This document shows positions 7,876 through 63,047 of a DNA stretch of 64,000 nucleotides, one piece after another. The stretch's first letter is position 1. The number at the start of each line of letters is the position of its first letter. Origin of the DNA: Octopus vulgaris (lineage: Eukaryota); assembly GCA_951406725.2 (NCBI GenBank), contig OX597821.1, positions 49,476,001 to 49,540,000 of the forward strand. Direction: 5' to 3'. Below the pieces are notes generated by a model, which made no database searches, was not told where the DNA came from, and saw only the letters and a list, made by a program, of their open reading frames with translations. The position numbers and the translations under genes are program-made.

Positions 7876-8407
7876 AGGGAGAAATGATGGCTGAAATTAT
7901 TTCTAGCCATTTTCAGAGGTTATCTATTAACATATCTTTCTCTCTCTGTGCATGTATATATATTTACTCATTTCAGCCATGCGGTTGTGGTCAGACTGGA
8001 GCATGCACACACACACACACACACACATATATAGGTATACACATATGCAAATATATTCATATACACCTATGGATGTGCATGCATGTGTGAGGGTATGAAT
8101 GTGTATGCATGCGTGCATGTTTCTTCACATTTTGTAGATCGATGAACACAGAATATGTTATCCTTTACTAGGAATAGGAAATAAGGGCTTGTGAAAGGCA
8201 AGCATGGAAACATAGACTAAAACAAAAGAATAAAATAAAAGTGTGTGTGTGTGTATTCAGTCACACTTCTCTGTGTTCTGTTCTCTGCCTTTCTCTTGTA
8301 TTTAGATCTTCAGGACATTTTTCATTTCTCCTTTTTGTTACTCCACATTTGTCTGTCTGCTAGCCCATGGCTTTTTTGTTGTATATGTATTATTATTTTT
8401 TGTTGTA

Positions 8408-8788
8408 TTCTTTTATTTATTTCAGTCATTTGACTGTGGCCATGCTGGAGCACCACCTTTAGTCAAATCAACCCTAGGACTTATTCTTTGTAAGCCTAGT
8501 ACTTATTTCGTTGGTCTCTTTTGCCAAACCGCTAAGTTAGAGGGACGTAAACACACCAACATCAGTTGTCAAGCGATGATGGGAGGACAAACATTTACAT
8601 ACACAGACACACACACACACATATACAATGGGCTTCTTTCAGTTTCCATCTACCAAATCCACTCACAAGGCTTTGGTCGGCCCAAGGCTATAGTAGGAGA
8701 CACTTGCCCAAGGTGCCTGCATGGGACTGAACCCGGAACTATGTGGTTGGTAAGCAAGCTACTTACCATACAGCCACTCCTTCACCTA
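8408..8788 (-). mobile_element. tRNA-SINE, same family as 7299-7875
   Basis: Reverse-complement similarity over the head and 3' end. Confidence 0.85.
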
Positions 8789-8804
8789 TAATTGTACATG
8801 TATT

Positions 8805-9205
8805 ATTATTTTGTTGTCTTTGCCTGTCCCTGAGCTCATCTTCTTTTTATTTTGTTTGTTTTTTTGTCCTCATCTGTTCACTAACTGTCTCATCTCGAAT
8901 TACTTTTATTCATTTTCGTGTGTCCATTTCCGTATTTCTTGTTCATCCTTGTTTGTCCATCTCATTTTGTTTCGTCATGTTTTGGTTGCATTCCCAGCAA
9001 GTTCTCTTGCCGGTTGCCTCCAGAGTGGAAGCGATATTATCGATATTGGCAGGAAATTGCATTCAATACCTGGCCGATAACTGATGAGTTGGTGACCTTC
9101 TGTGTTTGTTTTCCGTTTGTCTGTACATTTAGTATGTTTTTCTACTTGACCTTCTATGGCTTTTTTCTGTTTGTTTATTACTATATGTGTTTGACTTCTG
9201 AAAAT
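8805..9205 (+). mobile_element. Non-coding retroelement 3' end (probable PLE-type pseudo-LTR) carrying the permuted hammerhead-like motif
   Basis: T-rich sequence ending in (TA)n; structured motif at 9014-9087; element class inferred from architecture only. Confidence 0.5.
9014..9087 (+). ncRNA. Candidate non-circularly permuted hammerhead ribozyme, copy A
   Basis: GCGAT-A TTATCG N10 GAAATTGC N14 CGATAA CTGATGA; stems covary with copies B and C. Confidence 0.7.
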
Positions 9206-9239
9206 GTGTATATATATATATATTTTTGTTCTCATAACA

Positions 9240-9287
<48 letters not shown>

Positions 9288-9292
<5 letters not shown>

Positions 9293-9462
9293 GAAAAATA
9301 CAAACTGGGACAAGAACGTAAAACATTTAGAAGACGATACAAAAAACACGGACGGGACATTCGAAGCCTTCAATCTTCAGTCAAGAACCGGATCATCCTA
9401 GCAATTTCAGCTGATTAATCTTGAGATCGCTCCGATCCGGCCAGCCCCAGGGAAAAACTAAG
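9288..9462 (-). mobile_element. Non-coding retroelement 3' end, same family as 21215-21850
   Basis: Shares gggacaagaa.g.aaaacat and ccagcccca.ggaaaaactaag with 21229-21380; abuts (TA)n. Confidence 0.65.
9374..9446 (-). ncRNA. Candidate non-circularly permuted hammerhead ribozyme with kink-turn, copy B
   Basis: On -: GGCTGG CCGGATCG GA GCGAT-C TCAAGA ttaa TCAGCT GAAATTGC TAG GA TGATCCGG t TCTTGA CTGAAGA. Confidence 0.75.
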
Positions 9463-9906: not shown

Positions 9907-9985
9907 TGTGAAACCAGCCATCTTTGATCTCTTCTTAGCTGTTGGCATTGGAGCATATTTAGCTGTTGTTTATCTTATTGTCCAA
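9907..9985 (+). CDS. NCLN: Nicalin coding exon, transmembrane helix (VKPAIFDLFLAVGIGAYLAVVYLIVQ)
   Basis: tttccag acceptor and gtaagt donor; diagnostic VKPA.FDL.LA.GI.AYL motif. Confidence 0.95.
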
Positions 9986-10117
9986 GTAAGTGACTTCTAT
10001 CCTTCTATTAATCCTAAAATCACAAAATGCAGCAACTTCAAAGTCACATAATCTCCACTACACCATATGGTATTAAATTCTTATAAGGCGATGCCAAAGG
10101 GTGTGTTTTTTAATCTT

Positions 10118-32539: not shown

Positions 32540-34670
32540 CGAGGGTATAACAAATAAGATCAACCCTAGCAATTGATTGGTATTTCTTTTCTCAACCTCC
32601 CAGAAGGAAGTTGAGTAGAGCAGGATTAAACCTGAGAATACAACAGAAGTAACATAATACCACAAGGTATGTTCTATGGGTTCTGCTATCTGCCACCCTT
32701 CTCTTCTTAATAATAATTCTTTCTAGTTTTGACACACTGTCAGGGAGATTTATTGATTACATTGACCTCAAAGTGAATTTGAACTCAGACCATAAAGAGA
32801 TGAAAGAAATGCCTTGTGGCATTTTGTCTGATACTCTAATGATTCTGCCAATCCACTTCCCTAACTATAATAATAATAGTTTCTAATAGAGGTATAAGGC
32901 CAGAAATTTTAGGGAGAGGGTTGGTGAATTACATGAAGTCCAGTACGTGACAGGTACCTTATTTCTAGTTTGGTCATACATTTTATAAGATCTGCAAAAC
33001 ATTGGTTCTTTTTAATAAAGATTTCCCTCTTTGATTTTATTTCATAGTTAAGGTTGTTTAAAGAATAACACTGAACACATGTCTGAAGAACAAACATAAA
33101 CATTTTAGAAACATTAAAACAAAAAGATACTGCATTTTATACAATCATAAAGGGAGATTATTTGAGGAAAAGGAGAATGGGTTAGCTGGCAGAAAAGCCT
33201 TTCCTATCAGTGTAAAATGGAGGAGGAAAACATTAATTGTAATAATAATAATTATCATTTCAAATTTTAGCAAAAGATCAGAAATTCTGAGGGGAGGAGG
33301 TTAATTGATTACATCAACATCCATACTTGACTGATTCTATATGTTATCAACCCTGAAAGAATGAAAGGCAAATATTACTCTAATGGGAATTCATCATCAT
33401 CATCATCATCATCGTTTAACATCTGCTTTCCATGCTAGCATGGGCTGGACGGTTCAACTGGGGTCTGTGAAGCCAGAAGGCTGCGTCAGGCCCAGTCTGA
33501 TCTGGGAGTGTTTCTACGGCTGGATGCCCTTCCTAACGTCAACCACTCCGTGAGTGTAGTGGGTGCTTTTTATGTTCCACCGACACAGGTGCCAGACGAG
33601 ACTGGCGAACGGCCATGCTTGGATGGTGTTTTTTTTATGTGCCACCGACACAGGTGCCAGACAAGGCTGGCGAACGGCCACGCTCGGATGGTGTTTTTTT
33701 ATGTGCCACCGACACAGGTGCCAGACGAGGCTGGCGAACGGCCACGATTGGATGATGTTTGTTACGTGCCCACAGCATGGAGGCCAGTCGATGCGGTACT
33801 GGCTACGGCCACATTCGGATGGTTTTCTTATGTGTCACTGGCACTGGTACCACAAAAATACAAATTCCATTGATGTTCATCGATTTTGATTTGATTTGAT
33901 TTGATTTTGATTTTCACTTGCCTCAACAGGTCTTCACAAGTGTCCCAAGAAGGAAGGTATGCACAGGTGGACTGACTACGTCCCAGGTAGGGGCCATGGG
34001 TTATGGCCTCACGTGTCCTGCCAGGTCTTCTCATGCACAGCATACTTACAAAGGTCTCAGTCTCTGGTCATTTCCTCGGTGAGACCTAAAGCGCGAAGGT
34101 CGTTCTTCACCACCTCGTCCCAGGTTTTCCTGGGTCTACCAACTCAGAATATAAAGAGTGAGAAGAAATGTCATTAAGTGTTTTGTCTGATATGCTAACA
34201 ATTCTGTCATTTTGCTGCCTTAATAATAATCCTTTCTAATTTTGGTACAAGACCAGCAATTTTGAGGGTTGGGGAAGTCAATTACATTGACCCCAGTGTT
34301 CCGATAGTACTTGTTTTAGTGACTGGGAAAGAATGAAAGGCAAAGTCGACTTGGCAGAATTTGAACTCAGAATGTAAAGATAGACAAAATGCCACTAAGC
34401 ATTTCACCTGGTGTGTCAAAGATTATGCAAACTTGCCACCTTAATGAAAATCATAATCCCTTCTGATATAGGTACAAGGCATGAAATTTTGATGGGGTGG
34501 GCTAATCAATTACATCATGCACAAGAGTTCAACTGGTACTTATTTTATCAACTCTGAAAAATGAAAGGCAAAGTTGATCTTGGCAGAATTTGAACTTAAT
34601 ATGTAAAGATGGATGAAATGCTGCTAAATGTTCAGTCCAGCAAGTTAATGTCAGCTAACTGCAATAGTAA
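32540..34670 (-). repeat. Head-to-tail array of decayed ~200-bp SINE copies
   Basis: Repeated aataatcctttct..ggtacaagg..gattacat..gatgaaaggcaaagt..gaatttgaactcag units. Confidence 0.7.
33391..34140 (-). mobile_element. RTE LINE 3' end inserted into a SINE
   Basis: GRPRKTWDEVVKNDL, three ~58-bp tandem units, (TTTGA)n, (GAT)n tail. Confidence 0.9.
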
Positions 34671-44859: not shown

Positions 44860-45960
44860 CCCCATTACTATTTAACATCTATTTTCCATGCTGGCATGAG
44901 TTAGACAGTTTGACAGCAGGCTTCACTTGTCTGTTTTGGTATGGCTTCTACAGCTGGATACCTTTCTTAATGCCAACTACTTTACAGAGTGTACTGGATG
45001 CTTTTTACATGACATCAGTACAGGTGCTTTATATGTGGAACTGCCATGGGTACTTAATACACGACACCAGCATGAGTGCTTTATGCATGACCCCAGCCTG
45101 GTTGCTTTCTATGTGGCACTGGAATGAGTGCATTTTATGTGGCATTGGCATGAGTGCTTTTTATGTCGCACCAGCACCCAAAAGCTTGCAAGATAAGGAC
45201 CACTTGGCTGGGAGAGAGATCAATGATGTCTGTTTTCCTACTTACTAGGACTTTGGTCTTTGCTAAATTAACTCACTGGTCTAGCAATTTGATACCTCTG
45301 TAATTATTTCTGTCTAAGATGTCACTTTTACCTTTGTACAGTTGACTATAATGCTGCTACACTAGTCATTGATATGACTTCCTTATGAACAATTTAATTA
45401 ACTAAATGGGTGACTAGGCCATATACCACTCTCAGTGGTGGTTCCCAATGGGCTAGGAGCTTTCACTGTTTTCGCATCCTTCATAGCTTTATCTACCAGG
45501 CTACTGTTGATTTGAACAGATGGTCTCTTTGTTGGGTCTACATAGGCAGATTCTCCTTCTCTCATGCATTCTCTACATTTAGCAACCTTTCAGAGTGACA
45601 CTTCCAAGCCTCTTTCTTTGCAGAATTGCTAAGAACAAGTTGCTGTCATCCATGCAAACACAATTCTCTCCTACATCATGATTTTCTCTGACACACTGTC
45701 GTGCAACTGGAACACCTCATGCCTCTGGTCTTAATGCAGCAGAACATTGACGAACTTCTTCTTTCAGCTTCTACCCTAGCTAAATACACCTGTCACTTAG
45801 CTTTTCTTCTATCTACCTGATTTAGTTCTCTGCTGTCCTCACTCTTCCAGTCCTTCCAGACCTGTTTCTTAGCTCTTATGGCTACACTTTTCTACCATTA
45901 AGTCACCTTAGGTCTGGTTAGGACTTTGCATCAGTCACAAATTTGGTTTTTGGTTCTCAG
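44860..45960 (-). mobile_element. Decayed RTE fragments (3' UTR repeats and coding pieces)
   Basis: tttaacatctattttccatgctggcatg...; ggactttggtctttgctaaattaactc matches RTE RT. Confidence 0.6.
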
Positions 45961-59639: not shown

Positions 59640-59960
59640 CTATCACAGAATATATACCCATGTCTTTCCTAACAGCTATACTACATGTATCTTCACAGAA
59701 TATACCTCCTGTGCCTTCATCACAGAATACACTGCTTCTGTTTGCATCATATGGTGCCTTTATCACAGAAAATACCACCTGTGTCTTCATCACATGGTAT
59801 ACAACATGTCTTCATCACAGATTATTCCTCCTCTTTCTTCATCAGAGAATATACCTTCAGTGTCTTCATCACAGAATATATTACCTGTTTCTTCATCAGA
59901 GAATATACTGCCGGTCTACTCATTACAGAATATTAGCCTGTAGCTTCATTATGGAACATA
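59640..59960. repeat. ~27-bp minisatellite (tcttcatcacagaatataccncctgtg)
   Basis: About ten degenerate units visible. Confidence 0.85.
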
Positions 59961-62680: not shown

Positions 62681-63047
62681 GATGTTTTGCAAACATCTTG
62701 CACATGCAAGTGCTACCAGACGAGAGCTCAACATATTGGAAGCCAGCAAGTGTATGTGGTCATCAGGAGAGAATGTGTGCCATTTCAGAGCCTACCTCTC
62801 AACAGCATTAATGCGCACTGGCCTCCCTCACTGATATGAGGCCCCACTTGCTAGATCAACTTGATCAACTGGTTATCAAATAAGGCTCAATAGTCTTCTG
62901 TTTTCATTTTTGCGTAATTTAGACAACAGTTTATTCACTGTACCCTGTATATATATATGTATATATACTTCCTCCTAACACAACAGGTTAAAGATTTCAG
63001 TAAGTGTATGTGAGTAGCTTTTGGGGTATATCTGTGTGTGTTTATTG

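Follow-up and report, generated by a model that had tools for sequence, protein, structure and literature searches.

A putative hammerhead ribozyme with a displaced stem II strand near the 3′ ends of retrotransposons in Octopus vulgaris

Two otherwise dissimilar repeat ends that lie tail to tail in the genome of Octopus vulgaris carry the same motif, and the motif is best understood as a self-cleaving hammerhead of an unfamiliar build. Both lie in a window of 64,000 nucleotides (nt; contig OX597821.1, positions 49,476,001 to 49,540,000; coordinates below are those of the window), copy A on the forward strand and copy B on the reverse. The motif would belong to the second class of hammerhead strand orders (SGC/CSG/GCS) and would act near the 3′ end of retrotransposon RNAs; the strand carrying G10.1 appears to have moved upstream, and the gap so opened would be bridged by two extra helices, here called Pa and P0. 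We put the probability of this reading at about 75%. A wider claim is also likely, though we hold it a shade less firmly: that this is an active ribozyme whose core, interrupted between A9 and G10.1, is rebuilt by a conserved four-way junction; that it exists in tens of thousands of copies in this genome and is common to Penelope-like and non-LTR (long terminal repeat) retrotransposons and to the Naiads of ctenophores, cnidarians and cephalopods; and that cutting in the germ line leaves a genome-wide footprint. The structure seems well supported and the enzymatic role indirectly so, which would make the motif a new structural variant of the hammerhead class in a new setting.

Hammerheads cleave 3′ of an NUH triplet. 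Three conserved blocks are at issue here: S (a stem III strand, the triplet and a stem I strand), G (a stem II strand, GAAA and a stem III strand) and C (a stem I strand and CUGAnGA). Types I, II and III follow the circular order C > G > S; the octopus motif, with S > G > C, is none of them. The initial annotation of the window made the same distinction and knew of no description of the order NUH > GAAA > CUGAnGA; it is the order of the type-SGC hammerhead, for which cleavage in vitro is established, as it is for type CSG (Eckert et al. 2023, PMC10085705). There, type SGC is published only from metatranscriptomes; CUGAnGA and the adjacent stem II strand are taken as inseparable, and the A9-G10.1 link is assumed to be indispensable. 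The SGC descriptor accordingly places the stem II strand 0-1 nt after CUGAnGA, and a second SGC descriptor has a U there. The octopus motif has the block order of type SGC and its helix joining stems I and II; it does not have the intact block C, in which the stem II strand directly follows CUGAnGA.

Genome-wide, a tight pattern built on the motif finds 8,715 matches against 5 in the control; looser patterns find 29,826 (control 2,652), counts inflated by overlaps, and 12,704 (control 1,776). The loci fetched contain 204 distinct anchored hits, 151 of which fall into 13 families with at least three fetched copies, representing about six independent lineages as judged by eye; the other 53 (pairs and singletons, many of them truncated or due to chance) were left out of the 13-family parse, and several of them fail to parse. 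The majority sequences of all 13 families accommodate six helices: stems I, II and III, a helix that joins stem I to stem II (the I-II helix), P0 and Pa. The partner of stem II lies upstream of the cut site in every family, with five of five Watson-Crick pairs in 11 and four of five in two; the bases right after A9, the canonical place for it, offer at most two of five in any. P0 is a hairpin directly 5′ of G10.1, Pa pairs the strand directly 5′ of P0 with the bases after A9, and the junction so formed has no spacer at any of its three points in nine of the 13 families. The Pa pairing is particular to its family: a score of at least 4 is reached by 13/13 own pairings and by 15/96 cross-family swaps. 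Stem III is complete, non-palindromic and contained within one copy in all 13 (4-7 bp), and the I-II helix has 3-9 pairs in each. The elements that define the hammerhead class are present in 13/13 majorities, their core letters being partly set by the search patterns; core position 7 varies among subfamilies (U, A, G, C).

Covariation was scored for the three hammerhead stems and the I-II helix in an alignment of 25 copies, picked so that A-, B-, D- and E-like families were all represented. The proposed helices are paired in 81% of cells, against 57% in shuffles, and the covariation score is 0.66; shuffles give 0.23, and sliding the partners gives no more than 0.22. All three hammerhead stems covary. 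The upstream version of stem II is 93% paired, with two-sided changes at four of its five pairs, and the I-II helix is 66% paired, with two-sided changes at all five pairs counted; the canonical stem II adjacent to A9 pairs in 31% of cells, lower than in all 500 shuffles. Of the core pairs, G10.1-C11.1 is GC in 22/25 copies and A15.1-U16.1 is UA in 23/25. A single downstream G acting as G10.1 was considered and rejected, being present in only 5/25 copies.

Indirect evidence that the RNA is cut comes from the copies left in DNA: if cleavage occurs at the predicted site, the 3′ product, once copied, should begin at or just after the cut. Copy starts were scored with gaps, three internal deletions being counted as non-events, in 87 B-like copies among the first 100 matches listed for the tight pattern, chosen only on sequence 3′ of stem II. 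Starts fall within -12..0 of the cut in 27 of 81 copies at risk, against 3 of 54 within +1..+13 (Fisher p = 1e-4), and 44 of the 87 run intact through the site. Joins to (TA)n number 126 at the cut genome-wide and 16 at 2-4 nt upstream, despite the greater microhomology upstream. A pattern scan of metagenome contigs supplied a further, unrelated family, of 42 copies with the same helices, that resembles the end of a coral Naiad (4/46 equal-length matches were excluded as chance, with <75% identity, and seven contig-edge rows were dropped); its copies are mostly not in (TA)n, and their starts lean the same way (12/33 versus 2/21, p = 0.054). In loci L295, L241 and L058, inverted pairs of family B meet head to head, the join lying no more than a few bases 3′ of the predicted cut.

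In the window itself, spacing is identical between the two copies, and the pattern they share has exactly two matches even with three mismatches allowed (expected 0.01; 0/100 shuffled windows reach two). An Rfam scan of the window returned 129 hits at E<=5, mostly microsatellite noise, none of them a hammerhead. Nested folding of copies A and B is unremarkable (z -1.08 and +0.53), as would be expected if two of the helices are pseudoknots; nested folding and pair probabilities cannot show the crossing stems I and II. The features, with the predicted cuts, are these:

about 8301-8422: a second family A piece, separated from copy A by another repeat
8792-9205, forward: 3′ part of a family A repeat copy, with (TA)n at its end
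8990-8994, forward: copy A, 5′ strand of junction helix Pa; its expected partner, 9088-9092, is damaged by a 3-nt deletion
8995-9012, forward: copy A, hairpin P0, the 3′ strand continuing directly into G10.1; one mismatch relative to the family
9013-9018, forward: copy A, 5′ strand of stem II with G10.1 and one bulged U, upstream of the predicted cut
9020-9025, forward: copy A, 5′ strand of the I-II helix; partner 9069-9073
9031-9042, forward: copy A, block S, with the AUA triplet between strands of stem III and stem I; cut predicted after 9036
9048-9060, forward: copy A, block G, with GAAA between the 3′ strand of stem II (mutated at 11.1) and a stem III strand
9075-9087, forward: copy A, CUGAUGA core preceded by a stem I strand
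9206-9285: (TA)n-rich spacer in which copies A and B both end, tail to tail
9286-9462, reverse: family B repeat copy, 5′-truncated within P0
9358-9386, reverse: copy B, a stem I strand followed by the CUGAAGA core (9380-9374) and the 3′ strand of Pa (9371-9358)
9401-9413, reverse: copy B, block G, with U at position 11.1 where the family has C
9419-9430, reverse: copy B, block S with AUC triplet; cut predicted to fall between 9425 and 9424
9434-9446, reverse: copy B, 5′ strand of stem II (9446-9442) and I-II helix strand (9440-9434; partner 9394-9388)
62690-62856, reverse: third copy of the fold, decayed, of family H, at the tail of a non-LTR element

Much of the initial annotation survives this comparison. 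It had seen one motif with one spacing in two dissimilar repeat ends, which the coordinates and the pattern count bear out, and a 6-bp stem I with four compensatory pairs in both copies, which recurs here as four two-sided changes; it had read both cut sites correctly, and they hold across families. The upstream partner it gave stem II likewise holds across families, although its register in copy A was off by one base. A genome-wide collection of copies and a covariation analysis, of the kind that it proposed, yielded thousands of copies and covariation above shuffles; a non-circular hammerhead core in a pseudoknotted fold, with stem II completed from upstream, holds for the families at large. 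What it overlooked is the I-II helix, P0, Pa, the break between A9 and G10.1 and the retrotransposon setting, together with the third copy.

The window copies are themselves poor representatives. Set against the family majority, copy A has G9013 as G10.1, a bulged T9014, a change from C to G at position 11.1 (9052), one mismatch in P0 and, right after the core, the 3-nt deletion in Pa; copy B has T at position 11.1 (9409) where its family has C, and its truncation at 9462 removes the 5′ strands of P0 and Pa. The pair at position 11.1 is broken or wobbled in both. Copies A and B are decayed, and probably weak or dead as ribozymes. Elsewhere in the window, an exon-like stretch with ag/gt borders (9907-9986, forward) encodes a hydrophobic 26-residue piece; relative to its putative host gene, copy A would be sense and copy B antisense. 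Short tandem arrays occur at 33562-33852, 45045-45171 and 59711-59933 (units of 26-27 and 64-129 bp).

The families differ in age and in the company they keep. Family A is an old repeat (40 scored of 394 candidates, the other 39 copies being 80-86% identical) and family B a young one (40 scored of 2,682, the other 39 being 98-99% identical), found elsewhere in the genome as tandem units or arrays of ~830 bp and as inverted pairs. No reverse transcriptase (RT) or endonuclease open reading frame (ORF) was seen in the ~830-bp unit of family B; the tandem, inverted and (TA)n features of both families fit a Penelope-like element (PLE). Family F provides a coding neighbour in one of 30 loci (L175): a fragment of Naiad-type RT lies about 1.4 kb upstream on the same strand (RVT_1, E 1.3e-5), so that a C-terminal PLE-type RT is followed by a 3′ untranslated region and a (TA)n target, the arrangement expected of a Naiad, whose N-terminal part is characterised by a GIY-YIG endonuclease and a CxC linker. 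The family's 3′ end, matched by eye, is that of two published Naiad consensus sequences from octopus, Obim and Ovul. In families G and H the motif comes just after the stop of a non-LTR-type ORF (the ORF ends just before the motif in several H loci), which matches RVT_1 (E 3.7e-5) and, weakly, C2H2; its putative endonuclease piece has no match in Pfam or PDB. This element may belong to the HERO clade, and the endonuclease may carry a motif of PD-(D/E)xK type. Because families G and H stand behind a non-LTR-type ORF, the fold seems not to be restricted to one retroelement order. Its most compact form is found in these two families (L201-L210, L236 and L237, and the third window copy), at the 3′ ends of LINE-like elements.

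Other candidates and associations can be set beside these. A Neptune-like GIY-YIG family was rejected as the parent of the motif, as only 3/30 loci hold it, at scattered places; the same family (17,989 candidates) has a hammerhead core of canonical order at a fixed place, about 780 nt past the ORF match, in 9/30 loci (L101-L130). DNA shared upstream of family-A copies on C10 was rejected as an element ORF, since it consists of host gene duplicates. Four of those copies (L007, L014, L022 and L029, at about 95-96.5 Mb) occupy the same intron position in duplicated membrane-transporter-like genes; that insertion is therefore older than the gene duplications. A search with the upstream part of L039 gave matches belonging to a different repeat. 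An abundant repeat with a minimal type-I-like hammerhead, bearing insertions within the CUGAnGA core, is present at L039:295-340 and in L106, L116, L122 and L124.

Naiads have been reported to be without canonical hammerheads, and stray core halves in them were flagged 'HHR_core / HHR_half_core' and left unexplained in that report (Craig et al. 2021, PMC8557442). Of its 54 Naiad consensus sequences, 53 were inspected over their last 330-400 nt, by eye rather than by computation. The fold described here is visible in nine of the 53 ends, from three phyla: Bfor, 3_Chem, Amil, Aacu, Anas, 2_Movir, Obim, Ovul and, less cleanly, Esco. Six others, all from nematodes (1-3_Nbra, Hcon, Hpol and Asuum), show a complete textbook type CSG. 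The remaining ends have other motifs, or none visible in the stretch inspected. Oyster and hemichordate families share a conserved motif of another kind; Smim and 4_Dst may have ordinary SGC forms, partly visible; and motifs at the ends of 1_Movir and of several mussel and clam Naiads may be twister-like. The displaced-strand fold offers a possible explanation both for the reported lack of hammerheads and for the core halves: if it is right, Naiads carry permuted ribozymes that descriptors have overlooked, rather than none.

How might such an RNA work? Pa, P0, the I-II helix and stem III would fold as a nested frame, crossed by stems I and II. One uninterrupted strand runs through both Pa and P0, and another through stem II and the core (C11.1-G12), so that the two stacks would pass across each other in a four-way junction; the bridge over the gap would thus hold A9 beside G10.1, Pa and P0 being stacked on each other, a geometry that we infer from the pairing. 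The standard core could then form, and the RNA of the element would be cut after NUH, in vivo as well. Short copies would arise when the 3′ product, which in family B reaches the end of the element after about 140 nt, is reverse-transcribed, and tandem transcripts would be resolved into monomers by a single cut in each ~830-nt unit. Four helices (Pa, stem II, the I-II helix and stem III) would keep hold of the 5′ product, which might be released slowly and re-ligated, and re-ligation would account for the many full copies that remain uncut.

A different view accepts the core and supposes that it works only when tandem copies form a strand-swapped dimer, or with a protein of the element as chaperone, the single-copy fold being a resting state. 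The arrays and inverted pairs of family B are in keeping with this, as are the copies of that family intact through the site, the low-activity minimal PLE hammerheads that work as dimers (PMC4209133), and the PLE hammerhead that requires a protein (PMC11167929). We nevertheless think it unlikely: with a full, non-palindromic stem III inside each copy, dimers are not needed for the reason that usually applies; exchanging strands between copies would not bring back the A9-G10.1 link; and in families G and H the motif is found at the end of a single element. It is more doubtful still that the motif is a non-catalytic 3′ signal, such as an RT binding or priming site, with the hammerhead-like core a relic and the edge in copy starts due to RT stalling or (TA)n microhomology. 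The assumed indispensability of the A9-G10.1 link (PMC10085705) would favour such a signal, as would the lack of an edge in family E and the AT-richness of family B just 3′ of the cut. Yet CUGAnGA, GAAA and NUH are kept across families with unrelated stem sequences, in Penelope-like and non-LTR hosts; H is A, C or U and never G (which the parser itself excluded); the junction richer in microhomology is the rarer one; and the metagenome family, mostly outside (TA)n, leans the same way. As for an ordinary type-SGC hammerhead, with stem II formed by the bases right after CUGAnGA and the upstream pairing incidental, families D and E do have a G-run after A9 that could make four pairs with G-U wobbles; that run, however, has its own upstream partner in Pa, the core of family H is followed by a C-run, and the poor pairing of the A9-adjacent strand, in the alignment and in every family, largely refutes the idea, which we consider scarcely credible.

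Several observations weigh against a self-cleaving hammerhead with a bridged gap, the reading we prefer. C11.1, GAAA and CUGAnGA were demanded by the search patterns, and their invariance is partly by design; kinship among families inflates the covariation counts; the parser chose the best register for Pa and P0, and in family F4 it mis-parsed both, the correct form being found only by eye. Nested folding favours Pa and P0 in most families, not all, with a probability of <0.1 for Pa in 5/13 and for P0 in 3/13. On the side of the footprint, the metagenome replicate misses p<0.05, family E has no edge at the cut (4 versus 5, with low counts and a GUU triplet), and the family B edge is broad (-15..0), only 4/87 copies starting exactly at the cut. 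No autonomous parent and no RT or endonuclease ORF was linked to families A or B in the loci fetched. In the PLE whose hammerhead needed protein, moreover, cleavage was dispensable for insertion in vitro (PMC11167929).

The reading, if correct, shifts non-circularly permuted hammerheads from obscure metatranscriptome RNAs to animal genomes, at high copy number, and contradicts the working assumption that CUGAnGA and its stem II strand are inseparable. Copies that start at the cut would provide a genomic read-out for the role of hammerheads in Penelope-like retrotransposition, and a four-way junction beside the active site would be a natural handle for engineering switchable ribozymes. Work by Weinberg and colleagues from 2015, reportedly cited in connection with hammerhead variants that have extra helices, might affect how new the fold is. 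A literature search made up mostly of papers open without subscription (including passages of PMC13725137, PMC10162972, PMC6765202 and bioRxiv 10.64898/2026.07.22.740005) found neither this fold nor a permuted hammerhead described for animal retroelements.

The closest relatives help to define what is particular here. Type SGC, as presented in PMC10085705, shares the order, the arrangement of stems I-III as two pseudoknots, the short linker between stems I and II, the I-II helix and the core; the octopus motif differs in having its stem II strand upstream of the cut and in the addition of Pa and P0. Type CSG, represented there by two metagenomic sequences, has the same cyclic order opened at another point; unlike the octopus motif, it keeps the A9-G10.1 link and is without the Pa/P0 junction. 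Hammerheads of PLE pseudo-LTRs and of animal retrozymes (PMC4209133; bioRxiv 10.64898/2026.07.22.740005) also lie near the 3′ end of tandem, inverted or 5′-truncated repeats, and in those of PLEs a base may stay unpaired between A9 and stem II (PMC4209133); they are, however, type I hammerheads that act as dimers and whose stem III is weak and palindromic, whereas the octopus motif has a complete stem III, a non-circular order and six helices. Naiads resemble the motif's families in their (TA)n targets and their tandem or inverted copies (PMC8557442); no Naiad ORF was linked to families A and B in the loci fetched, and G and H follow an ORF of non-LTR type. The strand order, then, was already known; the novelty is the upstream stem II partner that breaks the A9-G10.1 link, the extra helices and the retrotransposon setting.
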